Shown here: one piece after another, positions 11,059 to 50,300 of the stretch
How positions within the stretch are numbered: position 1 is the stretch's first letter
Layout of the letters: each line of letters starts with the position of its first letter
Assembly: GCA_031459385.1 (NCBI GenBank)
Contig: JAVKIP010000005.1
Coordinates: forward strand, 1-64,000
Reading direction: 5' to 3'
Origin: Candidatus Fervidifonticultor secundus
GTDB taxonomy: Bacteria > Sysuimicrobiota > Sysuimicrobiia > Sysuimicrobiales > Humicultoraceae
DNA length: 64,000 bases
Notes under the pieces: generated by a model
Seen by the model: only the letters and a program-made list of their open reading frames with translations
Database searches by the model: none
What the model was told of the DNA's origin: nothing
Made by a program: the position numbers and the translations under genes

Positions 11059-11062
<4 letters not shown>
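9161..11062 (-). CDS. glgB: 1,4-alpha-glucan branching enzyme
   Basis: [49 protein letters not shown] and [16 protein letters not shown] overlap with the treS stop. Confidence 0.95.
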
Positions 11063-14403
<3,341 letters not shown>

Positions 14404-25920: not shown

Positions 25921-25993
25921 ACGCCTCCAGCGTAGCGGGTTTGCCGCGTGGCGCGAAGGGATCGCCCGCGGCCGCGGCCAACTACCCGCAGGG

Positions 25994-28762: not shown

Positions 28763-29635
28763 CTACGCCGTGCCCGCCCCCCCTGCGCCCCGGCCCTGCG
28801 GTGCCGTAGCCTCCAGCACGTGCGCGCGCATCCAGGCCAGGAAGGTCTCCCGGTCCCGGGAGATGGCGTCCCAGGCGGCGTAGAACGCGTTGTCGCGGCG
28901 GTAGTAGCCGTGCGCGTACGACGGCCGCGCGCCGCCCGGGGCCACGGCGATGGCGTCGATCGTCCAGGCCGGCAGCACCACGGCGTTGGGGCCGCCCGCG
29001 CGCAGGTCGTCCACGACCTCCTCGACGGTGACCACGGCGCGCGCGGCGGCCAGAACCACTTCCTTCTGCACGCCGACGATGCCCTCCAGCAGGACGTTGC
29101 CCGCGCGGTCGGCGCGCTGGGCGTGCACGATGGCCACATCGGGCCGGATCGAGGGCACAGCCGCCAGAAGCTCGCCAGTGAACGGGCAGGTGATGAACCG
29201 GATCTGGGGGTTGACGCGTGCCAGGTCGGTGCCCGCATACGCCCGCAGCACCGCGCAGGGCAAGCCCGCCGCGCCGGCCGCGTAGGCCGCGGCCATGCCC
29301 GCATGGCTGTGCTCCTCCAGCGCCAGCGGGCGCGGCCAGCCGTGCTCGACGGCGTCGCGGAACCGGTGCAACGATCCCACTCCCGGATTCCCGCCCCACG
29401 AGAAGACCAGCCGGCGCGCGCAGCCCATGCCGATCAGCTGGTCGTAGAGCAGGTCGGGCGTCATGCGGTACAGGGTGAGGTCCCGCCGGCCCTGCCGGAT
29501 TACCTCGTGGCCGGCCGCGAAGGGGATCAGGTGCGTGAAGCCTTCCATCGCCACCGCGTCGCCGTCCCGGACGTACTCGGCGATCGCCTCCGGAAGGGGC
29601 AGGAAGCGGGCCCGGCGCCGGCGGCAGTGCTCCAT
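28763..29635 (-). CDS. CoA-transferase alpha subunit (GctA/CatI type; probable 3-oxoadipate CoA-transferase)
   Basis: EGFTHLIPFAAGHEVIRQ, RMTPDLLYDQLIG, FSWGGNPGVGSLHRFRDAVE and HAQRADRAGN. Confidence 0.88.
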   Translation of the reverse strand: MEHCRRRRARFLPLPEAIAEYVRDGDAVAMEGFTHLIPFAAGHEVIRQGRRDLTLYRMTPDLLYDQLIGMGCARRLVFSWGGNPGVGSLHRFRDAVEHGWPRPLALEEHSHAGMAAAYAAGAAGLPCAVLRAYAGTDLARVNPQIRFITCPFTGELLAAVPSIRPDVAIVHAQRADRAGNVLLEGIVGVQKEVVLAAARAVVTVEEVVDDLRAGGPNAVVLPAWTIDAIAVAPGGARPSYAHGYYRRDNAFYAAWDAISRDRETFLAWMRAHVLEATAPQGRGAGGAGTA

Positions 29636-30213
29636 CAGAACTCGAACGCAAAGAAGGCGGTCTCGCCGTCTCCCTGCAGCACGATGTCGAAGCGGTAGAC
29701 CGGTGGCACCCCGCCCGGCTGGCGGCGCGCGAGCAGCGTTTCGCGGCGCTGCGGGGGCACGAGGCGCAGGACGGGATCCGTGGCCGTCGCCGGGTCGTCA
29801 TCGAAGTACAGGCGCGTCCACAGGCAGTCCAGCAGGCCGCGCGCCGCGACCGCCACGTTGATGTGCGGCGCCTGCAGCACCTCGCCCCGGAACGGGACGG
29901 GGCCCGGCTTGATCGTCTCGAACCAGAAGAAGCCCGCCTCGTCGGTCCCCGCGCGCCCGAAGCCGACGAAGGCCGGGTCCAGCGGCACCGGGCGCTGATC
30001 CAGGGGGTGGCGGTACCGCCCGAAGGCGTTCGCCTGCCAGATCTCCACCATGGCATCGTGCACCGGCGCCCGGTCGCCGTCGTAGACATAGCCCTCCAGG
30101 CGGATGCGCTGCCCCTGGGTGTCCGGGCGCACCAGCACGTTCAGCCCCTCTCGCAGCAGACCGCCGTGGAAGAACGGTCCGACGGTCTGCGAGGGGGTCA
30201 GCCCGCGGCGCAT
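29635..30213 (-). CDS. pcaG: Protocatechuate 3,4-dioxygenase alpha subunit
   Basis: TPSQTVGPFF, EIWQANAFG, APHINV, ARGLL, TRLYF and YRFDIVLQGDGET. Confidence 0.93.
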   Translation of the reverse strand: MRRGLTPSQTVGPFFHGGLLREGLNVLVRPDTQGQRIRLEGYVYDGDRAPVHDAMVEIWQANAFGRYRHPLDQRPVPLDPAFVGFGRAGTDEAGFFWFETIKPGPVPFRGEVLQAPHINVAVAARGLLDCLWTRLYFDDDPATATDPVLRLVPPQRRETLLARRQPGGVPPVYRFDIVLQGDGETAFFAFEF

Positions 30214-30226
30214 GGCAGCCCGCGGC

Positions 30227-30949
30227 TCATGACGGCCGCGCGATAGCCTCGAAGGGCTCGAAGGGCGTCACCATCGGCCCGCGCAGCACGATGTCGAACC
30301 GGTAGCCCAGCGCGTACTCGGGCTGGGTCACGTCGTGCGCGTAGCGGGCGATGAGGCGGTCGCGGGCGCCGGCCGGCACCGCGTTGAAGATCGGATCCAG
30401 CGCCAGCAGCGGATCGCCAGGGAAGAACATCTGGGTGATCAGCCGCGATGTCCACGTGGGCCCGAACAGCGAGAAGTGGATGTGCGGCGGGCGCCAGGCG
30501 TTGGGATGGTTGAGCCACGGGTAGGCGCCCGGCCGGATGCTCACGAACCGGTAGACGCCGTCGGCATCGGTGAGGAACCGTCCCCACCCCAGGAAGTTCG
30601 GATCCAGCGGTGCGTGGTGCTGGTCGGCGCGGTGGCGGTAGCGGCCCGCGGCATTGGCCTGCCAGATCTCCACCAGCGTGCCGGGCATGGGCGCGCCGCG
30701 CTCGTCCAGCACCCGCCCGGTCACGATGATCCGCTCGCCGATGGCCTCCTGGCCGGTGCCCATGTTGCGCGTCAGATCGGCGTCGTCGACGTGGACGACG
30801 CTCAGCTCGGGTCCCGGGCCGGTGAGCTCGGAGAGCGTGGGCGGCAGCGGCACCAGCGGCTGGCGCGGCGACCGCTTGATCGTGGCGCGGTAGGCTTCAT
30901 AGTAATACGGCGGAAAGACGTCAGGATCTCGCCGCGAGACCGTGCTCAT
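30227..30949 (-). CDS. pcaH: Protocatechuate 3,4-dioxygenase beta subunit
   Basis: IGERIIVTGRV, EIWQANAAGRYRH, PGAYPW.NHPNAWRPPHIHFS (Fe ligands) and GDPL. Confidence 0.94.
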   Translation of the reverse strand: MSTVSRRDPDVFPPYYYEAYRATIKRSPRQPLVPLPPTLSELTGPGPELSVVHVDDADLTRNMGTGQEAIGERIIVTGRVLDERGAPMPGTLVEIWQANAAGRYRHRADQHHAPLDPNFLGWGRFLTDADGVYRFVSIRPGAYPWLNHPNAWRPPHIHFSLFGPTWTSRLITQMFFPGDPLLALDPIFNAVPAGARDRLIARYAHDVTQPEYALGYRFDIVLRGPMVTPFEPFEAIARPS

Positions 30950-31438: not shown

Positions 31439-32152
31439 TCACGATCCCCCGGACGCGCCGGCCCGCCGCGCCAGGTACGCCCACGCCTGGTGCACCTGCG
31501 CCGGGGAGTAGCAGTGTGCCCGCTTGGCCAGCGCCTCGCCGTCGCTGGACCACGTGCGCAGCTCGCCCGCGGAGGCGGCCAGCAGCTGTTTCCAGCACGC
31601 CCGCTCCAGCAGCACGGCGCTCATCACGGCCGTCTCCAGGTCCTCGCCCGCGGTCACGATGCCGTGGTGCACCATGAGCGCGGCGTTCCGTGTCCCCACG
31701 GTCGCGGCCAGCGCCCGTCCCAGCTCGCGGGTGAGGATCAGGTCGCCGGTCAGCGTGAAGCGCGCGATATCGGGCGGCACGAAGAACGTCCCCTCGTGCG
31801 AGATCGGCCGCAGGGGCTGCGCCAGGGCCGCGAACGCCACCGCGTACGGCGCATGGGTGTGGCAGACCGCCTGCACGTCGGGGCGCGCGCGCATGAGCTC
31901 GGTGTGGATGGGGTACTCGCTGTGCCGCGTGCCCTCGCCTGCCAGCACCTCGCCGTTCCACCCCACGAGCAGGACGCGGGCGGGCGTGACCTCCTCGAAC
32001 GCCCACCCCGACGCCTTCATCCACACGCCGCGCCCGCCCGGATCCCGCAGCGACACGTGGCCCCAGATCAGGTCCCCGTGATCCTCCAGGGCGAGGATGC
32101 GGGACGCCAGGGCCACGCGCTCGCGCATCTCGTCGTCGCGAATGCGACTCAC
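31439..32152 (-). CDS. Class II aldolase/adducin-family protein (possible aromatic decarboxylase)
   Basis: GHVSLR, SEYPIHTELMRARPDV, VCHTH and MVHHG metal motifs. GTG start after CAGGAG. Confidence 0.85.
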   Translation of the reverse strand: MSRIRDDEMRERVALASRILALEDHGDLIWGHVSLRDPGGRGVWMKASGWAFEEVTPARVLLVGWNGEVLAGEGTRHSEYPIHTELMRARPDVQAVCHTHAPYAVAFAALAQPLRPISHEGTFFVPPDIARFTLTGDLILTRELGRALAATVGTRNAALMVHHGIVTAGEDLETAVMSAVLLERACWKQLLAASAGELRTWSSDGEALAKRAHCYSPAQVHQAWAYLARRAGASGGS

Positions 32153-32183: not shown

Positions 32184-32882
32184 TCATCGCCCGCCTCCGA
32201 CCAGCAGCAGTCCCGCGGCCAGGCTCGCCGCGCCCGCCGCCTGCTGCACGAGCCGCCGCGCGCCGGCCGCGCGCGACGAGGCCCGGAGCGCCGGCCACAG
32301 GGCCAGGGCACCGACCGCGACCATACCGGCCAGGCTCCCGGTCGCGAACAGCCCCAGGGATGCGGCGGCGCGCGGCGACGGCGCCGCCACGGCCACCGCC
32401 GCCACCGCGGCCCCGCTGCCCGCCAGCCCGTGGAGGCTCCCCACCAGGTACGCGGCCAGCGGCGCGTGCATCCAGCGCGGCGCCGTCGGATGGGCGTGCC
32501 CGGGGCCGTGGCGGTGCACGTGGAAGTGCGTGTGCACCATACCCGGGGCGTGCGCGTGCGTGTGCACGTGCAGGCGCTCGCGTCGCGCCCGCGCCAGGGT
32601 GAGCGCGCCCAGCAGGATCATCACAGCACCGGCGGCAACGTCGGCGCGGGCCGCGAGCCAGCCGGGCAGGCTCCGGCCCGATGCCGCCAGGAGCACGCCG
32701 GCTGCGGCCACCACCGTGGCATGCCCGGCGCCCCAGGCCACGGCCACACGCAGGACCTCGCCGCGGCTGCGGCCGTGGGCCGCCATCGTCGACACCGCGG
32801 CGAGGTGGTCCGGCTCCAGCGCATGCCGGGCGCCCAGCAGCAGCCCGTACGTCAGCACCAGCACGTCGTCGACGGGCATCAC
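32184..32882 (-). CDS. Nickel/cobalt transporter-like membrane protein (UreH/HoxN/RcnA-like)
   Basis: GARHALEPDHLAAV signature, WGAGH, His-rich loop HVHTHAH...HTHFHVH and GSLHGLAGS. Confidence 0.82.
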   Translation of the reverse strand: MMPVDDVLVLTYGLLLGARHALEPDHLAAVSTMAAHGRSRGEVLRVAVAWGAGHATVVAAAGVLLAASGRSLPGWLAARADVAAGAVMILLGALTLARARRERLHVHTHAHAPGMVHTHFHVHRHGPGHAHPTAPRWMHAPLAAYLVGSLHGLAGSGAAVAAVAVAAPSPRAAASLGLFATGSLAGMVAVGALALWPALRASSRAAGARRLVQQAAGAASLAAGLLLVGGGR

Positions 32883-34102
32883 GGGCGCCGTCCCTGGGGG
32901 AGATCTGCGGGCACAGGCCGGCGGTAGAAGTCGTCGTCCATCCGGCTCGCCCCGCCCTCCTGGCGCAGCATCGCCTCCCAGTCCTGCCGGATGAACGGGT
33001 CCTCCTCCCAGTAGGGAATCGCGCTGCCGCCCTCATCGAGGTGCATCGCGTTCCTGTCGAGCACCTCTTCCCCGGGCCGGCCGGGCTCGCGGCCGGTGCC
33101 GCGGCCGAACGGCCCGAACCAGGCCATCAGGCGCAGCGGCTCCCGGCCGACGCCGAAGTGCTGGTGGAACCACTGGCCGCCCATAGGCGCTGCGCTCACC
33201 ATGCCCACAGGCTCGTAGTCCTGGCGCACTACGCGGCTGGCCTGCCCCGTGGTCCAGGGCCGCGGGCCCACCTCGCGGGGCCACGCGTACGTGTACCCTT
33301 TCCCCTTGATGCAGATCAGCACCGCCGCCGACTCGTGGGCGTGTGCCTTCGAGTACCGGCCGGTCTCGTGCTGGCCGATCCACAGGTAGAAGACGTTTCG
33401 GTCCAGGTGGGGCTCCAGGCGTCGGAACCCGGGCGAGCGGCGGTTGTCGAGCGGCAGCGGGCAGTTGACCGCATCGGGAACGATGTTGGTGCGCACCATG
33501 GCCAGCCCGCGGAACGGGTCGGGCTCGATCTCCTGGAGGTTCGCCCGGTAGTAACCAGCGCCGCCGTCGTAGCGGTCGCGGAACGCATACGGGCAGTTGA
33601 AGACGAAGTCGGCGTTGCCGAACAGGTTCATGACGGCCGGCGCAGTGGTGCCCACCAGCAGCAGCGCCGGTCCCGACGCCATGCTGTTGATCAGGCGATG
33701 CGAGGTGTTCAAGGGGATCGTGAACAGCGACCCGGGCTGCCACTCGACGACCTCGCGGCTGCCGCCGTCGTCGGTCCACACCTCGGCGGCGCCGCGGCCC
33801 TCGACGACGAAGATCACTTCCTCATAGAGGTGGCGCTCGGGCTGCAGGGCCTCCGCGGGCGGGATCTCCACCACGTAGCATCCCCACAGGCCCTCGGTGC
33901 CGTAGAGCTGGATGAACGCGCCCCGTCCGCCCAGGCGGCGCCAGGCCCCCAGCGGCAGCTCCTGCACCCGCCGCACGCCGATGCCGCGGTGCACCGGGAT
34001 GCCTTCGGCTTCCATGAACAGGTCGTAGGGCGCGGGCGGGCGCTTCCATCGCCCCCAGCCGGCCCGCTGGTCTCCTGAGGGCTCCCGCCAGGGTCCGGTC
34101 AT
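32879..34102 (-). CDS. Bicupin protein 1 (function unknown)
   Basis: Two cupin units: ERHLYEE...PLNTSHRL and KAHAHES...WFHQHF. ATG after GAGGAG. Confidence 0.85.
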   Translation of the reverse strand: MTGPWREPSGDQRAGWGRWKRPPAPYDLFMEAEGIPVHRGIGVRRVQELPLGAWRRLGGRGAFIQLYGTEGLWGCYVVEIPPAEALQPERHLYEEVIFVVEGRGAAEVWTDDGGSREVVEWQPGSLFTIPLNTSHRLINSMASGPALLLVGTTAPAVMNLFGNADFVFNCPYAFRDRYDGGAGYYRANLQEIEPDPFRGLAMVRTNIVPDAVNCPLPLDNRRSPGFRRLEPHLDRNVFYLWIGQHETGRYSKAHAHESAAVLICIKGKGYTYAWPREVGPRPWTTGQASRVVRQDYEPVGMVSAAPMGGQWFHQHFGVGREPLRLMAWFGPFGRGTGREPGRPGEEVLDRNAMHLDEGGSAIPYWEEDPFIRQDWEAMLRQEGGASRMDDDFYRRPVPADLPQGRRP

Positions 34103-34173
34103 CGGTCTCCTCGCCACGTCAGCGCGTCAGAGGATCGCCGCAGCATCGCGATGCTTCGACCCCCTGTGCCCGC

Positions 34174-34653
34174 TTACCGGAGCAGCGCCCCCCACAGCCA
34201 TCCGTCGGCGAACGGCAGGTGGAGCAGCCGCACGAACAGCAACCAGAACCCCAGCCAGGCCAGGACCGGCATCGCCAGCGAAACCGCCCACCCTTCCCGG
34301 GCCTGGCCGCGCAGGTAGGCGAAGACGAACAGCGGCACCGCCCGCGGGAACCCCACCAGCGCGATGGCCAGGAAGAACCCGCCCATCCAGGCCACCATGG
34401 TCAGGGTGCGGCGCAGTGCCACCGCTGGAGGCACATCTCGAGAGAGCTCGACGTCCATCGCCTCCCGTGGATGGGCGTCGTCCTGGCGGCGCAGGCACAG
34501 CACGGCCTCGGCGGCGGCCAGCGCCAGGAGGGGGACGCCGATGACGCGCGGGTACAGCGCGGTCTTGATGGGCCACGACGCCGTCTCCGCCAGCGCCCAG
34601 GCCGCCAGCAGCGCCACCGCCGTGGCGAAGACCGCGTGGCCGCTAGGTCGCAT
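34174..34653 (-). CDS. Tripartite tricarboxylate transporter small membrane subunit (TctB family)
   Basis: Four TM helices, early YP motif, C-terminal LF..LLHLPF.DG, adjacent to TctA. Confidence 0.8.
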   Translation of the reverse strand: MRPSGHAVFATAVALLAAWALAETASWPIKTALYPRVIGVPLLALAAAEAVLCLRRQDDAHPREAMDVELSRDVPPAVALRRTLTMVAWMGGFFLAIALVGFPRAVPLFVFAYLRGQAREGWAVSLAMPVLAWLGFWLLFVRLLHLPFADGWLWGALLR

Positions 34654-36163
34654 GGACGGCCTCCGCCGCGGTCCGGCGGTGCCCCCGGCGCTGCTGGAGC
34701 AACGTGGACAGCACGACGCCCGCCACCAGCACCATCAGCGCCACGACGACCGGGCGTCCCAGCCACGCCGCGCCATAGCGCGCCACCGAGATCCACAGGT
34801 AGCGCTCCGCCACGTCGCCCAGCACGAGACCCAGCACCAGCGGCGCCCGGGGCCACTGGTAGCGGACCATCAGGTACCCGAGCGCTCCGAAGGCGAGCAT
34901 CACGACCACATCGCCCAGGCTGTTGTTGGCCGTGTAGGCGCCGACGAACGTCAGCAGCACCAGCACCGGGATCAGCAGCGTCCCGCGGATGGTCGTCAGA
35001 CGGGCCAGGTGATGCAGGAACACCAGGCAGACGGCGACGGTGACGATGTTGGCCAGCACGATCGTCCAGACCATCGAGAGGGTGACGTTGAGGTGCCGGG
35101 TGAGCATATCGGGCCCCGGCGTCAGGCCCACCAGGAAGAACCCGCCGAGCAGGATGGCCATCGCCGAGCTGCCCGGCACTCCGAACGCCACCGTCGGGAT
35201 CAGCGCGCCGCCCTCCTTGGAGTTGTTGGCGGCGCCAGGCCCCAGCACGCCGCGCACGTCGCCCGTGCCGAAGGCCGCCCGCTCGTGTGGCGAGCGGACG
35301 CTCTGGGCGGCGTGCGCGTAGGCCAGCCACTGGGCGACACCGCCGCCCAGCCCCGGGATGATGCCGATGTACGTGCCGATCAGGCTGCAGCGGATGGTGA
35401 GCCAGAAGTGCCGGAACACATCGCGCACTCCGGCGGCCACGCCCGCCAGCCGTCCGGCCGGTGCCTGGCCGGCGATCGCCGTGCCCCGCACGGCCAGGTC
35501 GATGATCTCGGGGATCGCAAAGAAACCCACCAGCACTGGCACCAGGTCCAGGCCGTCCCACAGGTAGAGCGTGCCCAGCGTGTACCGGTGGTTGCCCGCC
35601 TGGGGATCCGAGCCGACGGCGGCGATCATCAGCCCCAGCGCGCCTGCCAGGAACCCCCGCAGCATCGCCCGGGGGCTGCGGCCGCTGAGGGACGCGATGA
35701 ACGCGATCCCCAGCACCGCCAGCATGAACAGTTCGGGCGAGCCGAACGTCAGCACCAGGGGCCGCACCACCGGGATCGCCGCCGCCAGCGCCGCGGCGCC
35801 GACCACCGCACCCACCAGCGAGGATCCCAGCGCGGCGCCCAGCGCGCGGCCCGCCTCGCCCCGCTTGGCCATGGCGTGGCCGTCGAGGACCGTGGCGGCC
35901 GTGGTCCCCTCGCCGGGGATGCCGAAGAGGATCGAGGTGATGTCCCCGGTGGTGGCCACCACGGCGTGCATTCCCAGCAGGAACGCGAAGGCCGCCACCG
36001 GCTCCATGCGGTAGACGAAGGGCAGCATCAGGGCCAGCGTGGTGCCCCCGCCCAGGCCAGGGAGGAGCCCGACCCAGAAGCCCACGGCGATGCCGATGAG
36101 CATGAAGCGCAGGGCCTGCCACTGGAGGACCTCGACGAGCGCCTGCAGCAGGGCTTCAAGCAT
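34643..36163 (-). CDS. Tripartite tricarboxylate transporter large membrane subunit (TctA family)
   Basis: GLLPGLGG, SILFGIPG, DGHAMAKRGEAGRAL and ANNSKEGGALIPTVAFGVPGS. Confidence 0.92.
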   Translation of the reverse strand: MLEALLQALVEVLQWQALRFMLIGIAVGFWVGLLPGLGGGTTLALMLPFVYRMEPVAAFAFLLGMHAVVATTGDITSILFGIPGEGTTAATVLDGHAMAKRGEAGRALGAALGSSLVGAVVGAAALAAAIPVVRPLVLTFGSPELFMLAVLGIAFIASLSGRSPRAMLRGFLAGALGLMIAAVGSDPQAGNHRYTLGTLYLWDGLDLVPVLVGFFAIPEIIDLAVRGTAIAGQAPAGRLAGVAAGVRDVFRHFWLTIRCSLIGTYIGIIPGLGGGVAQWLAYAHAAQSVRSPHERAAFGTGDVRGVLGPGAANNSKEGGALIPTVAFGVPGSSAMAILLGGFFLVGLTPGPDMLTRHLNVTLSMVWTIVLANIVTVAVCLVFLHHLARLTTIRGTLLIPVLVLLTFVGAYTANNSLGDVVVMLAFGALGYLMVRYQWPRAPLVLGLVLGDVAERYLWISVARYGAAWLGRPVVVALMVLVAGVVLSTLLQQRRGHRRTAAEAVHAT

Positions 36164-36188
36164 GCCCGGTGCGCGCCCCGACGCGCGC

Positions 36189-37190
36189 CTACTCGAACCG
36201 GAAGAACTGGCTGAAGATCCGCACCACGTCGGCCGGCGCGCCCAGGACCTCCCGGATGACCCGCAGCGCCTGGTCACCGGGCACGAAGTCGATCTCGAAA
36301 CCCGCCCGCTCAGCTTCGGCCAGGAAGTCGCGGTCTTCGCTCACCCGCTTGAACGCCTCGCGGAAGAGCCTGACGCTCTCCTCCGGCGTGCCGGGCGGCA
36401 TGACGAAGGGACGCCCGATCTCCTCGGGCGTCGAGCGCAGGCGCATCACCGCCTTGGCCCGGGGCTCGGTCACCAGGTCCTCGTCCACCGGCAGCGCCCG
36501 GATAGCCGGGACCGTGGCCCGGGCGCGCACCACGGCCCGCACGAGCCCGCGGTCGATGAACGGCTTCAGCGACGAGTACGAGCCGGCGCGCCCGTCCACT
36601 TCCCGGCGTTCCACCGCCAGCATGATGTCCGCGCTCGAGGGGTACCCGCTGATGATCCGGAGGTTGAACCCTGCCAGGGCCTTGAGGAGCAGTGGGAAGT
36701 CGTAGGTGTTGGCGCCCGGGCCGGTGGCGCCGATGATGACGGCGGGGTCGGCCCGCCGGAGGTCGATCGCCTGCCGGTACGGCAGGTCGGCACGGATGGC
36801 CAGCACCGTGGTCTCGCTGGCGATGCTGCCCACCCACCCGAACCGCAGCATGTCGAACCGCATCCCTTCCACCTTCATGAGCTGGCCCACGACCAGGTTG
36901 CGGTTGAACAGCCCCAGCGTCAGCCCGTCGGGCCGGGCCACGGAGTAGACGTGATTGGCCGCCACGATGCTGTTGGCGCCGGGCATGTTCTGCACGATGG
37001 TCGTGGGGTTGCCCGGGAGGTACTTGGGCAGGTGGCGCGCCACCATGCGCGCGATGCGATCGTACCCTCCGCCGGCGGCGTAGCCGACGACGATCGTCAC
37101 GGTCTTGCCCGCCAGGCTGGGCTGTGGCTGCGCACCCGCCGTCGCGCTTGCCAGGAGCACGAGCACCGCCAGGACCGCGATGACCCTCAT
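36189..37190 (-). CDS. Tripartite tricarboxylate transporter substrate-binding protein (TctC/Bug family)
   Basis: Signal peptide, IVVGYAAGGGYD, VQNMPGA, PDGLTL and GYPSS...LAVERREVDG. Confidence 0.9.
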   Translation of the reverse strand: MRVIAVLAVLVLLASATAGAQPQPSLAGKTVTIVVGYAAGGGYDRIARMVARHLPKYLPGNPTTIVQNMPGANSIVAANHVYSVARPDGLTLGLFNRNLVVGQLMKVEGMRFDMLRFGWVGSIASETTVLAIRADLPYRQAIDLRRADPAVIIGATGPGANTYDFPLLLKALAGFNLRIISGYPSSADIMLAVERREVDGRAGSYSSLKPFIDRGLVRAVVRARATVPAIRALPVDEDLVTEPRAKAVMRLRSTPEEIGRPFVMPPGTPEESVRLFREAFKRVSEDRDFLAEAERAGFEIDFVPGDQALRVIREVLGAPADVVRIFSQFFRFE

Positions 37191-37398
37191 CTCGATCCCC
37201 CCTGCCGCCGTCACGGCATCCCGCGTGGACCACCTCGGGGCCCTCCTCTTCCACCTCCGGCGCTGTGGCTCCTGCGCTGGGACCGTGTCCGCAGCGCGGC
37301 GCCCGGCGGCGCCCGGGGGCCGCCACAAGGGCTCGGCCCCGCGGCCCGCGTATTACCTCGGTGGGCCGCCCGAGGGCAGGCGGCGAAGGGGGCGTTTT

Positions 37399-38505
37399 AT
37401 GGAGCGGATGATGACACGGCTTCCCGACGACTGGGGACAGATGGCATACCGCCGGTTCCTCGAGGCCGAGGGCATTCCCCTCGTCACAGGGCTGGCCGTG
37501 GACGACCTGCACGCCGTGGAGGTGGCGCCCTGGCCGCGCCTGGACGCCCGCGGCGCTTACATCCAGCTGACCGGCGCCGAGGACACCGACAGCGGCCACA
37601 TCCTCGAGATCCCGCCAGGACGGTCCACGGCCCCCGACCGACACCTCTACGAGGAAGTGTTCCTGGCCCTGGCCGGGCGCGGGACGTGCGAGGTCTGGAA
37701 CCAGGCCGGCGCGCACCAGACGTTCGAATGGCAGCGGGGCAGCGTGTTCGCCATCCCCCTCAACACGTCCCACCGCCTGCACAACGGCTCGGGCCGGGAG
37801 CCGGCCCGCCTGCTGGGCGTCACCACCGCCCCGTTGATGATCAACCTGCTGCGCAACCTCGACTTCATCTTCCGCTGCCCGTTCGACTTCACCGACCGCT
37901 TCCAGGGCCAGGCCGACTACTTCACCGGCGAGGGCACCCTCTACACCCGCCCGGATACTACCCAGAAGATCTGGGAGACCAACTTCGTGGCCGACGTCTA
38001 CCGGCTGGGGCTCTACGACTGGGTCGAGCGTGGGGCCGGCGGCAAGCACGTGAAGTTCGAGCTGGCCAACAACGCGCTGATCGCCCACGTCTCCGAGTTC
38101 CCGGTGGGCACCTACAAGAAGGCGCACCGGCATGGGCCCGGCGCCCACGTGGTGATCCTGGAGGGCGAGGGCTTCAGCCTGATGTGGACTGACCAGCACG
38201 AGACGTTCGAGGACATCCGGTGGAAGCCCGGGGCGATGTTCGTGCCGCCGGGGATGTGGTGGCACCAGCACTTCAACACCGGGCGGACGCCGGCGCGCTA
38301 CCTGGCCATCCGGTGGGGCAGCACGCGGTGGAAGATCACTCGCTACCTCGACTACCAGGGCGTGGACAAGAGCGCGAAGGCCGGCGGCAATCAGATCGAG
38401 TACGCCGACCAGGACCCGCGCGTCCACCAGCTCTTCGTCGAGCGCTGCCGGGCCAACGGCGTTGAAGTCAGGATGGACCAGTTCTTTGCGCCCGCGGCGC
38501 GCTAG
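37399..38505 (+). CDS. Bicupin protein 2 (function unknown)
   Basis: DRHLYEE...PLNTSHRLHN and YKKAHRHGPGAHV...WWHQHFN. Clearly paralogous to bicupin 1. Start could be 37399, 37408 or 37411. Confidence 0.87.
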   Translation: MERMMTRLPDDWGQMAYRRFLEAEGIPLVTGLAVDDLHAVEVAPWPRLDARGAYIQLTGAEDTDSGHILEIPPGRSTAPDRHLYEEVFLALAGRGTCEVWNQAGAHQTFEWQRGSVFAIPLNTSHRLHNGSGREPARLLGVTTAPLMINLLRNLDFIFRCPFDFTDRFQGQADYFTGEGTLYTRPDTTQKIWETNFVADVYRLGLYDWVERGAGGKHVKFELANNALIAHVSEFPVGTYKKAHRHGPGAHVVILEGEGFSLMWTDQHETFEDIRWKPGAMFVPPGMWWHQHFNTGRTPARYLAIRWGSTRWKITRYLDYQGVDKSAKAGGNQIEYADQDPRVHQLFVERCRANGVEVRMDQFFAPAAR

Positions 38506-38509
38506 CGCG

Positions 38510-39979
38510 ATGCACGAGTTCGACGAGGACCACATCCACCTCGCCGGCGACGACGGCGCGGCCGTCTACGTCGGCGACCGCGTGGTCCTGCGCAGCGTGG
38601 GCGTCGATATCGGCTCGTCGACCTCGCACATGATCTTCTCGCGGCTCACCCTCGAGCGGCAGGGCCAGCGGCTCTCCAGCCGCTTCGTCGTCACCGCGCG
38701 GGAGGTTCTGTTCCGCTCGCCGGTGATCTTCACGCCCTTCGAGCCCTCAGGCCGGCTCGATGCCCCGGCGCTGGCCCGCTTCATCAACGCCGCCTACAAC
38801 GACGCCGGCGCCCTGCCCGAGCAGGTCGATGCGGGTGCGGTCATCACCACGGGCGAGGCGGCGCGCCGCGAGAACGCCCGGGCCGTGGGCGAGCTCTTTG
38901 CCCGGCACGCCGGCAGGTTCGTCACCGCCACCGCCGGCCCCAACCTCGAGAGCCTGCTGGCCGCGCACGGGTCGGGCGCCGTGGAGTTCTCGAAGAATAC
39001 CACCGACCCGCTGCTCAACGTGGACATCGGCGGCGGCACCACCAAGTTCGCGATCTGCCAGGCCGGGCGCGCAGAGCACACCGGCGCCATCCACCTGGGC
39101 GCACGCCTGCTGGCCTGGGACCCGGCGGGCACCCTGGTCCGGGTCGAGGCCGCCGGCCAGCGGCTCGCGGCGGCCGCGGGCCTGGCCCGGCTCCCCGCAG
39201 TGGGCGACCGGCCCGCGCCCGAGGCGCTGGACCGGCTGGCCGACCACATGGCCGAGGTCGTGCTGCGCATCGTTCAGGGCGCCCGCGACACCGACCTCTG
39301 GATCACCGACCCGCTGCCGCCGGCACCCGCGTGCCGGCACGTCGTCGTCTCGGGCGGGGTGGCCGAGTACGTCTACGGTCGCGAGGCGCGCGAGTTCGGC
39401 GACCTGGGCCCGCGGCTCGCCGCTGCCGTGCGACGCCGCGCCGCGGCGGCGGGCCTGGCACTCTTGGACCCGCGGGAGGGCATCCGCGCCACCTGCATCG
39501 GAGCGTCGCAGTACACGGTGCAGCTGAGCGGCGACACGATCTTCCTCACCGATCCCGGGGTGCTGCCGCTGCACAGCGTGCCGGTGGTGCGCCTGCGGCG
39601 CGCCGGGCCGTCGGCAGACGTGGTGGCCGAGGCGCTGCGCCAGGGCATGGCCCGCCTCGACCTCACGCCCGACGACGCGCCGTTCGCGGTCGCGGTGCAC
39701 TGGCACCACGGCGCCGACTACGCGTCGCTCAGGGAACTGTGCGCCGGCATCACCGCCGCCCTGCCGCGCGGGGGGAACGGCCATCCCCTGCTGGTGGTCA
39801 TCGACGCCGACGTGGCCGGCCTGGTGGGGGCCCTGCTGCGGCAGGAGTTCGGGGTGCCGGGCGAGATCGTCTGCATCGACCAGGTGCTCCTGCGCGAGTT
39901 CGACTACATCGACGTGGGCCGGCCGCTCCCCGACCAGGGCGTGGTGCCGGTAGTGGTCAAGAGCCTGGTCTTCCGCTGA
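38510..39979 (+). CDS. EutA-like (ethanolamine ammonia-lyase reactivase family) ASKHA ATPase
   Basis: SVGVDIGSSTSHMIFSRL, GAVITTGEAARRENA, FVTATAGPNLESLLAAHGSGA, NVDIGGGTTK, IRATCIGASQYTVQLSG and C-terminal DYIDVG...VPVVVKSLVF. Confidence 0.88.
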   Translation: MHEFDEDHIHLAGDDGAAVYVGDRVVLRSVGVDIGSSTSHMIFSRLTLERQGQRLSSRFVVTAREVLFRSPVIFTPFEPSGRLDAPALARFINAAYNDAGALPEQVDAGAVITTGEAARRENARAVGELFARHAGRFVTATAGPNLESLLAAHGSGAVEFSKNTTDPLLNVDIGGGTTKFAICQAGRAEHTGAIHLGARLLAWDPAGTLVRVEAAGQRLAAAAGLARLPAVGDRPAPEALDRLADHMAEVVLRIVQGARDTDLWITDPLPPAPACRHVVVSGGVAEYVYGREAREFGDLGPRLAAAVRRRAAAAGLALLDPREGIRATCIGASQYTVQLSGDTIFLTDPGVLPLHSVPVVRLRRAGPSADVVAEALRQGMARLDLTPDDAPFAVAVHWHHGADYASLRELCAGITAALPRGGNGHPLLVVIDADVAGLVGALLRQEFGVPGEIVCIDQVLLREFDYIDVGRPLPDQGVVPVVVKSLVFR

Positions 39980-40177: not shown

Positions 40178-41449
40178 CTATGAGCCCGCCCGGCGGTACG
40201 CCGCCCGGGCTCCTCCCGCGCCATTCGGCCGGCACAGGTCGGGCACCGCCGCCACCGCCGCGTTGGCCACCAGCACGGTCGCCGCGATGGCGTAGAAGAC
40301 GGAGGGGAGCCCGTACCGGTCGGCGATGACCCCGCCGGCCAGCGGCGCGAGCGTCGCGCAGGCTGCCTGCGCCGTGAACAGCGCGCCCACGGTGGTCCCC
40401 TCGTACGCCCGCGGCACCACCCCCAGCGCCCAGCGGAAGATCGCCGGCCGCATCGAGTAGACGAAGAACCCCAGCAGCGCCAGCACGGCCACGAACAGCG
40501 GGCCCGAGCCCAGGGCCGCCACCGCCAGCACCACCAGGCTCGTGGTGAGCATCCCCGCCGTGGCCACGCGCTTGGGGCCGAGGCGGTCGGCAAGCGTCCC
40601 CGCCAGCGGGGTGGCCACCATGCCGGAGACCTGCACGAGGGTCATGTACAGGCCCAGCAGCGCCGCAGGCACGTGCAGCGTGTACACCAGGTACAGCGGC
40701 AGGAAGGTGCTCAGGCCCTGCTGGGTCAGAGACCGGATGCCCGAGATGCCGGCCAGGGCCATGAAGCGGGCGTTGCGCACCAGCGCCGCCAGCCCGCCGG
40801 CGTACTCCCGCGCCGTGCGGGCCGGACGGTCGCCGGAGGCACCCACCTGCGTCCGACGCAGCACCTCCAGCAGGGCCAGCGCCAGCGGCAGCCCGAGCGC
40901 CACCGTTGCCGAGAGCACGCCGCGCCACGCCAGCATGCCGACCAGCAGCCCGGCGGCCAGCGGCGCCACCACTTCGCCCACGTTGGCCCCGAGCTCGTGC
41001 AGGGCCAACCCGTAGCCGCGGCGGTCCGGATAGCGCGCCGACAGCGCCGTGATGGCGGCGGGGTGCCAGAGGAACATCGCCACGCCGACCACCGCCATGG
41101 CCGCGACCATCACGGGGAAGCTGCGGCTGAACACGATCGCCAGGTACGGCACCAACGTCAGTAGCAGCGATGCGGTCATGAGGAGGTCGCGCCGCCCCAG
41201 GACGTCTGCGACCGCGCCGGCCGGCAGGTTGACCACGATGCTCATCACCTGGCGCGCGCTGAGCAGCAGCCCCACCTGGCTGAACGACAGGCCCAGGTCG
41301 CGGGCGATGTAGGGCAGCAGCAGTCCGAAGCTGGCGGTCGCGGCGTGGTTCAGGGCGTGGCCGGCCGCGACCGCCCAGAGACCGACATTGCTGCGGTCCG
41401 GCCGCGGCAGCGCAGAGCGCAGGAGGTGCGGCGCAGTGCGCAGCGCCAC
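40178..41449 (-). CDS. MFS transporter
   Basis: About 12 TM helices, GHALNH, GAVADVLGRR, WHPAA and GTLADRLGPK. This is the C-terminal part of the 960-aa ORF in the track. Confidence 0.88.
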   Translation of the reverse strand: MALRTAPHLLRSALPRPDRSNVGLWAVAAGHALNHAATASFGLLLPYIARDLGLSFSQVGLLLSARQVMSIVVNLPAGAVADVLGRRDLLMTASLLLTLVPYLAIVFSRSFPVMVAAMAVVGVAMFLWHPAAITALSARYPDRRGYGLALHELGANVGEVVAPLAAGLLVGMLAWRGVLSATVALGLPLALALLEVLRRTQVGASGDRPARTAREYAGGLAALVRNARFMALAGISGIRSLTQQGLSTFLPLYLVYTLHVPAALLGLYMTLVQVSGMVATPLAGTLADRLGPKRVATAGMLTTSLVVLAVAALGSGPLFVAVLALLGFFVYSMRPAIFRWALGVVPRAYEGTTVGALFTAQAACATLAPLAGGVIADRYGLPSVFYAIAATVLVANAAVAAVPDLCRPNGAGGARAAYRRAGS

Positions 41450-41451
41450 GC

Positions 41452-43296
41452 TCAGCGGTTCTGCATGACGACGTCGACCAGGGCGGGCCGCCGCTCGCGC
41501 GCCACCACCCGGGCCGCGCGCGCGAGCGTCGCGCGCAGCTGGCCGGGGTCCTCGACCGGCCCCCAGGCCTCGATGCCGAAGCTGCGGGCCAGGGCCGCGA
41601 AGTCCACCGGCGGGTCCTTCATCGCCTGCCCGATGTGCGCACGCTCCACCGGGCGGCCGCGCGCCCGCGCCATCAGGACCTGGTGCTCTTCGTCGTTGTA
41701 GTAGGTCCGGTTGTTGAACATCACCACGAGCAGGGGAATCCGGTGGTGGGCCGCGGTCCACAGGGCGCTGGGCGTGTACAGCAGGTCGCCGTCGGGCTGG
41801 ATGTCGATGCACAGGCGCTGCCCGCCGTACGCCAGCGCGGCCCCCACCGCGTGCCCGAGGCCGTAGCCGACGCCGCCACCTTTGTGCGCGCCCACGTACG
41901 GCACGCGGCCTGGCCGCAACGGCCAGTCCCACAGGCGGCGCGTCCAGCCGCGCAGGGTGCGGTTGACCAGCACCCAGTCCTCGCCCCCGACAACGTCGCC
42001 CAGGTCGAGCGCCAGCCGCGGCAGCGCGATCGGCCGCGCCTCGCGCGCGCGCTCGGCCGCGGCGCGCCACCGGGCGCGCAGCGCGTGATGGAGGCGCGCC
42101 AGGCGCGCCCGGCGCCGGTCCAGGCGGGCCCGCAGGGCGCTCTGCCCCCGCACCAGCCGCGCGCACCGCGCAGCGAGCGCCGGCAGCGCCAGCGCCGTGT
42201 CGGCGGTGATGGGCAGGTCCACCGGCTGCAGCCGCCCGTGCTCCTGGATCCAGCTGCGCACCACCAGGTCGTTGAGCGAGATGTGAATCACCCGGGCGCC
42301 GGCGCGCAGCCGCGTCCGGGCCCGGCGCGCGGTCCGGTCGGTGGTCGAGGTGGCCATCTCGAGGTCGAAGACGTCGAGCGCCAGGACCACGTCGGCCTGC
42401 GGCAGCAGGTCGTCCTCGGCCCCGGTCAGGTCCAGCGGGTGGGTGTTGGGGAAGTTGAAGCGGCTGCCCAGGTCGATCACCGGGAGCGCCATCGTCTCGG
42501 CCAGCCGGACCAGCGCGGCCACCGCGTCCGGCGTGCGCCCCACGTAGTCGGCCAGCACGACCGGCCGCGCGGCCCCGGCGAGCCAGCGCGCCGCGACCTC
42601 CAGGGCGGCAGGATCGGCCTGCGCGCGGGCGGGCGGGGCGTACCGGCGCAGGTCCGGCAGCGCTACGGGCCCATCCAGCGCCTGTTCCTGCAGGCCCGCG
42701 TCGAAGCACAGGTAGACGGGGCCCTGCGGCTCGGTGGTGGCGATGCGGTAGCCGCGGACGAACGACTCCACGAACCCCGTCAGGCTGGCCGGCTGGTCGT
42801 CCCACTTCACGTAGTCGCGCACGGCGTTGCCCTGCACCAGGGCGGTGTGGATCCAGTCGATCCAGGGCCGGCGGGTCTCCACGGGCATGGGCCCGGTCCC
42901 GCCCAGCACCAGCACCGGCGTGCGGTCGAGCCAGGCGGTGTAGATGGCCATGGCTGCGTGCAGCAGGCCCACGACGTCGTGGACGATCGCCGCCATCGGG
43001 CGCCCGCGGGCTTTGGCGTAGCCCTGGGCCACGGCCACCGCGATCTCCTCGTGGTTGCACAGGACGATCTGCGGGGCGCGGTTGCCCCCGTAGTTCACGA
43101 TGGAGTCGTGCAGCCCCCGGAAGGTGGCACCGGGATTCAGCGCGGCGTACTCGATCCCGTACGCCCGCATGAGGTCCACCAGGAGATCCGAGCCGTACGC
43201 CGCGCGCTGCGTCCCCCGCGCGCGCCGGCGCGGCCGGCCCCCTGCTGCGGCCTCCGGCGCGCCGGGCTCAGGGGCAGGTGCCGGCGAAGCGCGCAT
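41452..43296 (-). CDS. Thiamine diphosphate-dependent enzyme (acetolactate synthase/benzoylformate decarboxylase superfamily)
   Basis: YGSD, NPGATFRGLHDS, catalytic HEE, GPVY, and ThDP/Mg motif variant QPDGDLLY...FNNRTY. Start uncertain. Confidence 0.88.
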   Translation of the reverse strand: MRASPAPAPEPGAPEAAAGGRPRRRARGTQRAAYGSDLLVDLMRAYGIEYAALNPGATFRGLHDSIVNYGGNRAPQIVLCNHEEIAVAVAQGYAKARGRPMAAIVHDVVGLLHAAMAIYTAWLDRTPVLVLGGTGPMPVETRRPWIDWIHTALVQGNAVRDYVKWDDQPASLTGFVESFVRGYRIATTEPQGPVYLCFDAGLQEQALDGPVALPDLRRYAPPARAQADPAALEVAARWLAGAARPVVLADYVGRTPDAVAALVRLAETMALPVIDLGSRFNFPNTHPLDLTGAEDDLLPQADVVLALDVFDLEMATSTTDRTARRARTRLRAGARVIHISLNDLVVRSWIQEHGRLQPVDLPITADTALALPALAARCARLVRGQSALRARLDRRRARLARLHHALRARWRAAAERAREARPIALPRLALDLGDVVGGEDWVLVNRTLRGWTRRLWDWPLRPGRVPYVGAHKGGGVGYGLGHAVGAALAYGGQRLCIDIQPDGDLLYTPSALWTAAHHRIPLLVVMFNNRTYYNDEEHQVLMARARGRPVERAHIGQAMKDPPVDFAALARSFGIEAWGPVEDPGQLRATLARAARVVARERRPALVDVVMQNR

Positions 43297-44311
43297 CCGC
43301 GAACTCCTCGAAGGTAATCGCCTGCCGGACGAGCTGGAACTCCACGGCCACGTCCATCTCCGCCTGGAAGCCCCGCCGGCTGAGGCACCCGTCTCCGAAC
43401 CCGCCCTTGATCCGTTCCACCATCTTGAGGATCAGCGCCGGATCGACGCCCTTGTACTGCTCGGCGCCCCGCGGCGTGGCCAGCACGGCCTCGACGACCT
43501 CGCGGCTCGGGCGCGCGCGGATGAAGGCCAGGGCCTTCCGGTGGGCGGCGACGACCCGCCGCACCAGGCCCGGGTTGCGGGCGATCACGTCCTCCCGCGT
43601 GACCAGCACGTTGGCCAGCGCCTTCTCCCCGAACCACTTGCGGTGCTCCGCGGGCTCCCAGATCGGCACCAGCGGCACCGCCACACCGTCTTCCAGCACG
43701 CGCGTCGTCGTGGGCTCCCAGGTGGGGAAGGCGTCCACGCGGCCGGTCCGCAGCGCCGTGTAGATCACCCCGGCGTCGGCGCCCAGGGGCAGGAACTGCA
43801 CATCCCGCTGGGGATCGAGGCCGCTCTTCTTCAAGTAGAGGCTGGCCGCGGCCCAGGCGCCGGCCCCGGGCGCAGAGAACCCGACCCGCCGGCCCCGGAG
43901 GTCGGCCACGGTGCGGACGCTGTCGCGCAGCTCGGACCGGACCACCAGGCTGAAGATCTCGCGGTCGTGCAGCGCTGTCACCGCGCGCCAGGGCGACCCC
44001 GCGATGCGCGCGATGGGCACGTGCACGAAGGCGAAGAGGCCGAAGTCGAACTCGCGGGCGATCATGGCGGCCCGGAGCGTGCCGCCCGAGCCCAGCACGA
44101 ACTCGGCCAGCTCTATGCCCTCCTCCTGGAAGAACCCCCGCGCGTCCGCGACCAGCGCGGGCAGGTTCTGCTCGGCCGACAACGCGCCGGGCAAGCGCAG
44201 CCGGTAGAGGACGCCGGGTCCGGCCGCAGCGGTGGCGGTCACCGCCAGCAGCAGCGCGCCCTGCAGCGCCAGGCCCCACCACGCGTGCGCGACGCGTGCG
44301 GACGATCTCAT
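43268..44311 (-). CDS. ABC substrate-binding protein (NMT1/SsuA-like)
   Basis: Signal peptide, VADARGFFQEEGIE and DLRGRRVGFSAPGA. Confidence 0.87.
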   Translation of the reverse strand: MRSSARVAHAWWGLALQGALLLAVTATAAAGPGVLYRLRLPGALSAEQNLPALVADARGFFQEEGIELAEFVLGSGGTLRAAMIAREFDFGLFAFVHVPIARIAGSPWRAVTALHDREIFSLVVRSELRDSVRTVADLRGRRVGFSAPGAGAWAAASLYLKKSGLDPQRDVQFLPLGADAGVIYTALRTGRVDAFPTWEPTTTRVLEDGVAVPLVPIWEPAEHRKWFGEKALANVLVTREDVIARNPGLVRRVVAAHRKALAFIRARPSREVVEAVLATPRGAEQYKGVDPALILKMVERIKGGFGDGCLSRRGFQAEMDVAVEFQLVRQAITFEEFADARFAGTCP

Positions 44312-44321
44312 CGGCCACCCC

Positions 44322-45173: not shown

Positions 45174-45178
45174 CGGGC

Positions 45179-50092: not shown

Positions 50093-50300
50093 CGTCCTCC
50101 ACCCCCGATGGACAGCCCGTGCGTCCGCGGCGCCGCCGCGCCGCGGCGTGCGGTCGCGCCCTGTCTACTCCAGCCGCTCCTCGGGCACCTGCTGTGGCAG
50201 CGCCGCGGCCGGGGCAGCCGCCCGGAGGGATGCTCGCGCGCCGCGCCGTAGTCTCAGGGCAGCCGCGCGCGCCGACAGGCGGCGTGGCCGGGAGGTGCTC

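Follow-up and report, generated by a model that had tools for sequence, protein, structure and literature searches.

The window analysed here is a 64,000-nucleotide stretch of Candidatus Fervidifonticultor secundus DNA (contig JAVKIP010000005.1, positions 1 to 64,000), taken from a 3.3-Mb, 59-contig assembly with an estimated completeness of 97.6%. It contains two divergent gene units. The shorter one, on the plus strand, encodes a two-barrel cupin protein, bicupin2, followed by an ATPase of the EutA family with the ASKHA fold. The longer one, on the minus strand, encodes a transporter, a second bicupin and a protocatechuate branch. The bicupin and EutA-like pair is the conserved core of this module, and the ATPase may act as a dedicated helper of its bicupin neighbor.

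The G+C content of the window is about 72%, and for this reason genes were chosen by third-position GC and then confirmed with Pfam and NCBIfam models. The minus-strand unit runs in the order tctC-tctA-tctB-bicupin1-NicO-like-class II aldolase-pcaC-pcaH-pcaG-two CoA-transferase subunits-pcaB. In the divergent plus-strand unit, bicupin2 precedes the EutA-family ATPase gene. The features are as follows:

37399-38505, plus strand: bicupin2 (368 aa), Pfam Cupin_2
38510-39979, plus strand: EutA-family ASKHA ATPase (489 aa), PF06277, 402.5 bits
37191-37398: divergent intergenic region between tctC and bicupin2, 208 bp counted from the start codons
36189-37190, minus strand: tctC, solute-binding protein of a tripartite tricarboxylate transporter (TTT), with a signal peptide, N-terminus MRVIAVLAVLVLL; PF03401, 41.8 bits (cut-off 27)
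34643-36163, minus strand: tctA, large membrane subunit; PF01970, 408.8 bits (cut-off 28.9)
34174-34653, minus strand: tctB, small membrane subunit; PF07331, 44.8 bits (cut-off 29.1)
32879-34102, minus strand: bicupin1 (407 aa), Pfam Cupin_2
32184-32882, minus strand: membrane protein of the NicO/RcnA-like Ni/Co transporter family (232 aa); PF03824, 34.6 bits (cut-off 27.7)
31439-32152, minus strand: class II aldolase/adducin family protein; PF00596, 140.6 bits
30946-31365, minus strand: pcaC-like carboxymuconolactone decarboxylase (CMD, PF02627, 88.5 bits)
30227-30949, minus strand: pcaH, protocatechuate 3,4-dioxygenase beta subunit; TIGR02422, 317.1 bits (cut-off 296.4), also matched in Pfam
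29635-30213, minus strand: pcaG, protocatechuate 3,4-dioxygenase alpha subunit; TIGR02423, 220.2 bits (cut-off 126.25)
28763-29635 and 27992-28759, minus strand: two CoA-transferase subunits, PF01144 (CoA_trans)
26652-27995, minus strand: pcaB-like 3-carboxy-cis,cis-muconate cycloisomerase, Pfam Lyase_1

An earlier note, made from the sequence letters alone, had described these two divergent units as a candidate module, and every gene that it named is present by Pfam, NCBIfam and third-position GC. The several tight junctions of 0-4 nt that it mentioned are likewise there. Overlaps of 4 nt join bicupin1 to the NicO-like gene, pcaC to pcaH, and the second CoA-transferase gene (subunit B) to pcaB. 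The overlap between pcaG and CoA-transferase subunit A is 1 nt, the two CoA-transferase genes are 3 nt apart, and the stop codon of bicupin2 is separated from the EutA-like start by 4 nt, while tctA and tctB overlap by 11 nt. The extent given to the module, 32184-39979, needs widening: it spans the genes from the NicO-like one to the EutA-like one, but the minus-strand unit continues to 26652. The 208-bp spacer between tctC and bicupin2 presumably holds both promoters.

The individual assignments differ in firmness. The TTT system is complete, with TctC, TctA and TctB each above its Pfam cut-off, and both PcaHG subunits exceed their NCBIfam equivalog cut-offs. The CoA-transferase pair falls far below the NCBIfam PcaIJ cut-offs (31 and 42 bits versus 128 and 243), and the pcaB-like protein is below the cut-off in both models (NF006554, 462.8 versus 595 bits; TIGR02426, 336.9 versus 355.75). 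In the NicO-like gene, GC by codon position is 0.85/0.60/0.92, and the gene is therefore a real coding sequence.

Conservation singles out the bicupin and its ATPase. Within the phylum of the host, 94 genomes were considered, and 29 loci were taken from genomes other than that of the host. A bicupin2 orthologue stands directly upstream of the EutA-like gene, on the same strand, in 27 of these 29 loci, and the other two are contig ends. Viewed as a phylogenetic profile, a strong EutA-like match occurs in 35 of the 94 genomes, and all 35 also encode a full-length bicupin. A 36th match (E 1e-4) was left out of this count, and two members of the 35 that are flagged as unpublished (G016 and G024) carry no claim made here. 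Four of the 94 genomes have a bicupin and no EutA-like gene; three of them have completeness estimates of 59-83%, the fourth of 94%.

The association extends well beyond the phylum. A wider scan with one genome per species yielded 67 loci, in which a bicupin lies within 3 kb of the EutA-like gene in 58, directly upstream and on the same strand in 55, across at least six phyla. Two further loci have the bicupin at 3.05 kb or 8.2 kb, and two are cut by contig ends. The pair is found in Binatia, Chloroflexota, Alpha- and Betaproteobacteria, Acidobacteriota and Thermodesulfobacteriota, with hosts that include Dehalococcoidia/SAR202, Chloroflexia, Xanthobacteraceae, Rhodospirillaceae, Micropepsaceae, Burkholderiales and Bryobacteraceae. 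Cultured hosts are Phyllobacterium zundukense, where the pair is on plasmid NZ_CP104971.1 (cupin WP_262291220.1, neighboring 'EutA' WP_262291219.1), and Sinorhizobium mexicanum, S. terangae and S. chiapasense, where it is found on replicons of these species. Co-occurrence of bicupin and EutA-like genes across unrelated genomes, on which the original proposal depended, is thus borne out by both surveys.

Partners also match by subtype. Among 49 directly adjacent pairs, all 15 ATPases with an MH[DE] start stand beside bicupin2-type partners, which carry the motif HRH, and all 33 ATPases with a GFTG or GGR[IV]FF motif stand beside bicupin1-type partners, which carry HAH. Because relatives share their subtype labels, the 49 pairs are not independent events and speak for consistency only.

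The ATPase belongs to the EutA family in the broad sense and departs from EutA proper. It matches PF06277 with 402.5 bits against a gathering threshold of 27, covering model positions 3-474 of 475, and is colinear from end to end with the EutA of E. coli (b2451; 37% identity, E 2e-77). Yet it scores under all four NCBIfam EutA equivalog cut-offs (311/598, 299/769, 235/799 and 210/952). EutB (PF06751) has no match in the host genome, which is 97.6% complete. In the control genomes, PF06277 matches occur in five species, four of them above the cut-off, and EutB occurs only in E. coli; EutA-family genes without EutB are therefore common.

A quick maximum-likelihood tree was built from 76 rows, comprising 71 members of the bicupin set and five EutA proteins, from E. 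coli, C. difficile, Listeria, Natronorubrum and Halalkalicoccus, whose adjacency to EutBC was confirmed. Its branches are long and its root was placed at the midpoint, and the five EutBC-linked EutAs separate from all 71 bicupin-set rows with a Shimodaira-Hasegawa-like approximate likelihood ratio (SH-aLRT) support of 99. The description of the ATPase as an orphan is supported on two counts, by the branch separate from the sampled EutBC-linked EutAs and by the missing EutB.

Among 42 aligned ATPases, the nucleotide-binding motifs of the actin fold are invariant: D33/G35/T38 (DxG..T), D172/G174-G176/T177/K179 (DxGGGTxK) and S281/G282/G283 (SGG). No invariant or near-invariant cysteine was found in this alignment, which rules out an identity as a [4Fe-4S] activator of the HgdC/BcrAD type. 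Structural comparison returns generic ASKHA proteins, namely Ppx/GppA-type, PilM/FtsA and HgdC-type proteins, at Z 14-17. The best match is 3cer_A (Z 17.0, root-mean-square deviation (rmsd) 4.1, 254 residues aligned), in a list that contains many kinases. A sequence search of solved structures gave no relative of the ATPase; its best matches, at E 0.3 or weaker, were unrelated proteins, antibody chains among them.

The two bicupins of the window are paralogues (35% identity, E 1e-66). Bicupin1 shares 59-63% identity with bicupins elsewhere that have an EutA-like partner, and its subtype has an EutA-like partner of its own in Binatia, Xanthobacteraceae and other lineages. An alignment of 46 bicupins places the invariant residues Y239, K241, H243, H245 and H291, together with the near-invariant H289, all in the C-terminal barrel. 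No invariant histidine was found in the N-terminal barrel of these 46 proteins. Instead, that barrel displays a conserved surface, on which G93, G95 and E110 are invariant and F109 and W111 nearly so. Clustered at 50% identity, the family falls into 742 groups (E up to 1e-30).

An AlphaFold2 model of bicupin2, confident with a predicted local distance difference test (pLDDT) score of 92.2, was compared with solved structures. In VIA-align, salicylate 1,2-dioxygenase 2phd ranks first (Z 22.2, rmsd 3.2, 257 residues aligned) and gentisate 1,2-dioxygenase 3bu7 second (Z 21.7, rmsd 3.7, 272 aligned). Foldseek ranks oxalate decarboxylase and vicilins first, at a TM score of about 0.5. The modeled fold is that of a bicupin, with the gentisate and salicylate 1,2-dioxygenases nearest in VIA-align by a slim Z margin.

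Sequence similarity to these enzymes is slight. The gentisate dioxygenase model TIGR02272 gives a negligible 21.7 bits against a cut-off of 442.1, phmmer reaches 3bu7 at E 0.0056, and the 5-aminosalicylate dioxygenase model gives 32.4 bits against a cut-off of 650. Neither bicupin1 nor bicupin2 has a significant match to an acireductone dioxygenase (ARD) model in Pfam or NCBIfam. A sequence search of solved structures returned marginal cupin matches only, and in the ESM Atlas the bicupin matches are exclusively clusters named 'cupin domain protein'.

A complex of bicupin2 and the ATPase, which the earlier note had wanted modeled by AlphaFold-multimer, gains support from prediction. Their modeled complex scores 0.73 (0.73, 0.71 and 0.73 in three runs), and the best of three controls scores 0.00. 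Of 157 solved complexes 116 attain this mark, as do 2 of 215 mismatched pairs; these counts apply only roughly, because alignments of our own were used for the pair. The runs agree on at least 90% of contacts, and the partner has a pLDDT of at least 89.

In the predicted interface, the ATPase contributes its C-terminal domain (residues 341-343, 401-407, 433-446, 457-458 and 475-477) and the bicupin its N-terminal barrel (74-76, 94-98, 108-115, 128-133, 175-176 and 198-204). Family-invariant residues lie at this interface, namely G95 and E110 of the bicupin and G341, T343 and D434 of the ATPase. The model supports an arrangement in which the ATPase would bind the N-terminal barrel of the bicupin through its own C-terminal domain. 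No experimental structure of such a complex is known to us.

These observations can be assembled into a two-protein unit. Its enzyme would be a bicupin metalloenzyme with a His-x-His...His site in the C-terminal barrel, possibly a 3-His bicupin oxygenase, and its second component a dedicated EutA-family ASKHA ATPase. The ATPase would dock on the non-catalytic N-terminal barrel and spend ATP on loading, exchanging or repairing the metal in the catalytic C-terminal barrel. It would thus be an activase, metal chaperone or reactivase, in parallel with the cofactor exchange that EutA carries out on its own client. EutA drives the ATP-dependent swap of damaged cofactor on ethanolamine ammonia-lyase.

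In the host, the unit is wired into an aromatic-acid operon with TctCAB uptake, a second bicupin, a decarboxylase-like class II aldolase and the protocatechuate branch. That the EutA-like protein is an ATP-driven activase, or a metal-loading or repair factor, for the bicupin is the likeliest of the explanations considered and has in our judgment about an even chance of being right. What the ATPase does, which metal is concerned and what the bicupin converts, and how, are all inferred from the combined analysis.

Several points weigh against this activase or metal-factor role. Cupins usually take up their metal unaided. The complex score expresses the confidence of the model itself and is no measurement. 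Five of the 67 loci in the wider scan, all from Chloroflexota, have no bicupin within 10 kb. No bicupin-EutA fusion was seen among longer proteins, which is a weak objection; the search of longer proteins gave three matches, none with a cupin domain, one being an EutA-like protein fused to an MFS_3 transporter (P0127, 898 aa) and another a fusion to a methyltransferase. The putative metal-binding start is not universal either: 18 of the 42 aligned ATPases lack an MH[DE] start, including the Phyllobacterium one that stands beside a NiCoT gene.

On the enzyme side, MncA (Z 20.9) and oxalate decarboxylase (Z 20.8) trail the ring-cleaving dioxygenases by at most 1.5 Z units. Gentisate and salicylate dioxygenases have their catalytic site in the N-terminal barrel, and the invariant histidines of bicupin2 are C-terminal. 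One of the five Chloroflexota loci that have no bicupin nearby is L096, from a Dehalococcoidia genome; its EutA-like gene and the methylmalonyl-CoA-mutase-family gene directly after it occupy 9908-13239, and the latter matches PF01642, a B12 enzyme family, with 731.8 bits. Because of this adjacency to a B12-family mutase gene, some members of the EutA-like branch may still serve cobalamin enzymes. The closest relatives of the L096 protein are those of L059 and L074, and L059, the one scanned, has no adjoining mutase gene.

A different division of labor would make the ATPase a catalytic subunit. ATP would then be spent on the substrate, for example in phosphorylation of a hydroxyl or carboxylate group, and the two proteins would form a single ATP-consuming enzyme, for instance a carboxylase, decarboxylase or isomerase with an aromatic or sugar-like acid as its substrate. 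The ASKHA fold is common to kinases and Ppx/GppA proteins, and the best structural match of the ATPase, 3cer_A, heads a kinase-rich list. Strict one-to-one pairing, a predicted stable complex and the recurrent class II aldolase neighbor, whose family often acts on phosphorylated substrates, also speak for this division.

What tells against a catalytic subunit is the colinearity of the ATPase with E. coli EutA (37% identity), a remodeler of its client enzyme, and the predicted interface, which uses the C-terminal domain and not the nucleotide cleft. In addition, the His-rich tails described below point to the handling of metal rather than of substrate. We regard a catalytic role as unlikely.

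Less probable still is that the bicupins are plain Fe(II) ring-cleavage dioxygenases like those for gentisate and salicylate, active without help, and that the EutA-like protein serves in some accessory capacity that has nothing to do with their activity. The closest structures (2phd at Z 22.2, 3bu7 at Z 21.7), the aromatic-catabolism context and the position of bicupin1 in the host, which lacks an adjacent ATPase of its own subtype, fit this explanation. Against it, sequence likeness to gentisate dioxygenase is negligible (TIGR02272, 21.7 versus 442 bits), and adjacency, matched subtypes and the complex model favor a functional tie between the two proteins.

It is very improbable that the ATPase is a genuine reactivase for a cobalamin enzyme encoded elsewhere and that its place beside a bicupin is incidental: its PF06277 membership, two B12-binding-domain proteins on other contigs of the host genome and the mutase gene beside the L096 homologue are outweighed by bicupin adjacency in 58 of 67 loci spread over several phyla and 27 of 29 same-phylum loci, the branch separate from the sampled EutBC-linked EutAs, the lack of EutB in the host genome, scores under every NCBIfam EutA cut-off and the absence of a mutase beside L059, the relative of L096.

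If the ATPase does load, exchange or repair a metal in the bicupin, the identity of that metal becomes the next question. The earlier note had proposed nickel or cobalt, and part of the evidence agrees. The ATPase of the window begins MHEFDEDHIH, and an M-H-[DE]...HxH start is found in 24 of the 42 aligned ATPases and in all 26 same-phylum loci with an aligned start. Bicupin-linked ATPases carry an N-terminal extension of 20-35 residues, often starting with this MH[DE]...HxH pattern, and no such extension is present in the five sampled EutBC-linked EutAs. The host genome's own HypA also begins MHE; a review (PMC7055735) describes the N-terminal MHE motif of HypA as its Ni(II) site and His2 as essential.

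Four ATPases from Rhodospirillales (L071, L076, L079 and L094) end in poly-His C-terminal tails. The EutA-like tails of this order are long and rich in His and Asp, with 7 to 17 His, and resemble the metal-binding tails of nickel chaperones. On the P. zundukense plasmid, a NiCoT permease of the HoxN/NixA type and nikR flank the pair, and a class II aldolase gene precedes it.

The NicO-like protein of the window contains HALEPDH, which agrees with H-x4-D-H, the NicO/NiCoT signature, as well as a loop rich in His. No other NicO-family gene was found in the host genome. Against TIGR00802, the protein scores 19 bits with a cut-off of 333. Homologues occur in 19 of the 94 phylum genomes. Among phylum relatives, none was seen beside the pair outside the window, and where a position is listed, the gene lies on another contig or about 30 kb off (G091). 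A Ni/Co transporter gene adjoins the pair in only 2 of about 70 loci, those of the window and the Phyllobacterium plasmid.

The companion statement that none of the usual nickel clients accompanies the module was made for the window, and it is true there only in that narrow sense: a NiFe hydrogenase large subunit (786 bits), with hypA before it, is encoded on another contig of the host genome (C14:44474-47710). This hydrogenase and HypA could be the client of the NicO-like transporter.

The MHE/HxH start, the poly-His tails and the Phyllobacterium NiCoT and nikR genes speak for the nickel/cobalt proposal. Against it stand the missing synteny of the NicO-like gene, the 18 of 42 ATPases that do not begin MH[DE], and the hydrogenase encoded elsewhere. 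Support for nickel, as read from these sequence features, is weak to modest.

A more specific version can be formulated, which we consider speculative and hold with low confidence. The EutA-like protein would be a metallochaperone of a new kind, an ASKHA-type, ATP-driven nickel insertase or exchanger that holds Ni(II) on a HypA-like M-H-E/HxH motif or, in some lineages, a poly-His tail, docks on the N-terminal barrel and, with ATP, opens and metallates the His-rich C-terminal site of a nickel-dependent oxygenase of aromatic compounds. If true, the few known nickel enzymes would be joined by a further family, whose maturation system has no relation to the P-loop NTPases HypB, UreG and CooC.

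The genomic neighborhoods bear on the substrate. The link to protocatechuate catabolism, a prominent part of the original proposal, was seen in Fervidifonticultor alone, where the loci with pca genes next to the module are L034, L035 and L037. An aromatic-catabolism context recurs more widely. In L039 and L040, the core consists of two tctC genes, tctA, tctB and bicupin1, with bicupin2, the ATPase and an MFS transporter gene running divergently. It is surrounded there by transporter genes and by genes for a zinc-type dehydrogenase, one more bicupin and a class II aldolase. The divergent placement of tctC and bicupin2 is also seen in relatives, and TctABC genes occur near the pair in several phyla.

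Rieske oxygenase alpha-subunit homologues of the LigXa-C type lie near the pair in 11 loci, and nine loci (L034-37, L039, L040, L091, L113 and L114) have a homologue of the class II aldolase nearby. Other neighbors include a UbiD decarboxylase, an FAD-dependent aromatic hydroxylase, BenC-like reductases and IclR/PcaR-like regulators, as well as Amidohydro_2 proteins, a molybdenum hydroxylase and, in Binatia, a pyridoxal phosphate enzyme with a zinc-type dehydrogenase. The theme shared by these neighborhoods is the breakdown of imported carboxylates that are aromatic or at least cyclic.

The class II aldolase of the window is best matched by NF004855 in NCBIfam and falls below the cut-off of NF053537, the model of the 3,4-dihydroxyphthalate decarboxylase PhtC (79.4 versus 200 bits). 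It is possibly a decarboxylase of a hydroxy-aromatic acid. The bicupins had been placed, tentatively, upstream of protocatechuate. For an enzyme that cleaves the ring of a single-ring protocatechuate precursor this position is not simply tenable, because PcaHG opens the ring later in the operon. The bicupins would have either a larger or different substrate, or another oxygen chemistry.

Next to the EutA-like gene, two further genes recur with the pair in other genomes:

40178-41449, minus strand: MFS transporter, PF07690, 161 bits, called by codon-position GC frame analysis and convergent on the EutA-like gene
41452-43296, minus strand: thiamine-diphosphate enzyme (Pfam TPP_enzyme_N/M/C; NF006203, 277 bits)

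In L038-L041, an MFS orthologue directly follows the pair on the same strand as the pair. Thiamine-diphosphate enzymes are found beside the pair in L006, L014, L032, L034, L035, L043, L044 and L066; L066 belongs to Burkholderiales, and its enzyme shares 33% identity with that of the window. The minus-strand region 41452-45991 beyond the MFS gene holds this NF006203-like enzyme, which has a weaker benzoylformate-decarboxylase match, together with an ATP-binding cassette (ABC) importer of the NMT1 type.

Some observations stand apart from the module. Directly beyond pcaB lies an ATP-dependent DNA ligase gene (24340-26040, minus strand; DNA_ligase_A_N/M/C). A related ligase gene is also near the pair in the Chloroflexota locus L045, probably by coincidence. 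A third bicupin of another family is encoded at 49968-51335 (plus strand), with two Cupin_2 stretches and weak matches to ARD and the ChrR cupin. It adjoins an ABC transporter with a solute-binding protein at 49007-50164 and a permease at 47231-48973. The extra bicupin near the pair in L039 (12461-13501) resembles this third one. In the Micropepsaceae locus L081 (3436-11515), a Haem_oxygenase_2 gene (iron redox enzyme), three tandem bicupins, a gene for a 391-aa protein and an NMT1-like gene are followed by the EutA-like gene, and several tctC genes surround the locus.

To our knowledge, the one role established for EutA-family proteins is the repair of a single vitamin-B12 enzyme, and we found no description of a bicupin and EutA-like pair in the literature searched, which omits most subscription journals. 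What we rate as new is the class of client that a dedicated, ATP-dependent helper of the EutA type would have here. An entire branch of the family would be tied to bicupin clients in soil, marine and hot-spring bacteria of several phyla.

If the ATPase indeed loads or repairs a cupin metal, cupins would gain their first ATP-dependent system of maturation or repair. The ATPase might then also represent a new type of nickel chaperone, and could account for inactivity of such cupins when they are produced alone. The same finding would correct a systematic mis-annotation: in the records examined, these genes bear the name 'ethanolamine ammonia-lyase reactivating factor', and their genomes make no such use of ethanolamine. 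The cultured Phyllobacterium and Sinorhizobium hosts make the question directly testable.

Several known systems invite comparison. Among the cupins, ARD and the quercetinase QueD have metal sites able to use Ni and are not known to need an ATPase; ARD is touched here only through a weak Pfam match of the third, unrelated bicupin of the window. The gentisate and salicylate 1,2-dioxygenases are the best structural matches of bicupin2 in VIA-align; they have a 3-His type of site, as is predicted for bicupin2, and likewise occur in aromatic-catabolism contexts. They differ in sequence (12-16% identity) and in the location of the His triad, which bicupin2 carries in the C-terminal barrel, and we know of no ATPase partner for them.

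Among the nickel proteins, the known nickel-insertion NTPases are P-loop proteins. HypA/HypB, UreE and SlyD resemble the EutA-like ATPases through the HypA-type M-H-E start (PMC7055735) and the poly-His tails of some members. The EutA-like proteins have the ASKHA fold, 18 of 42 lack MH[DE], and their metal binding is putative. The reactivases DdrAB, PduGH and GdrAB are likewise ATP-driven, actin-fold helpers of a single enzyme (DdrA 2d0o_A, Z 11.0, rmsd 4.0, 239 aligned). They nevertheless belong to another family, are heteromeric and serve a B12 client, and many unrelated ASKHA proteins match the ATPase structurally at least as well.

The closest known system is EutA itself, which the EutA-like ATPase resembles in PF06277 membership, in a colinear alignment at 37% identity, in the ASKHA motifs and in the location of the gene beside its presumed client. 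The client of EutA is EutBC, the adenosylcobalamin-dependent ethanolamine ammonia-lyase, whereas that of the EutA-like protein is presumably a bicupin, in a host genome with no EutB. NCBIfam scores below the cut-offs, a separate branch and an N-terminal extension complete the distinction from EutA.

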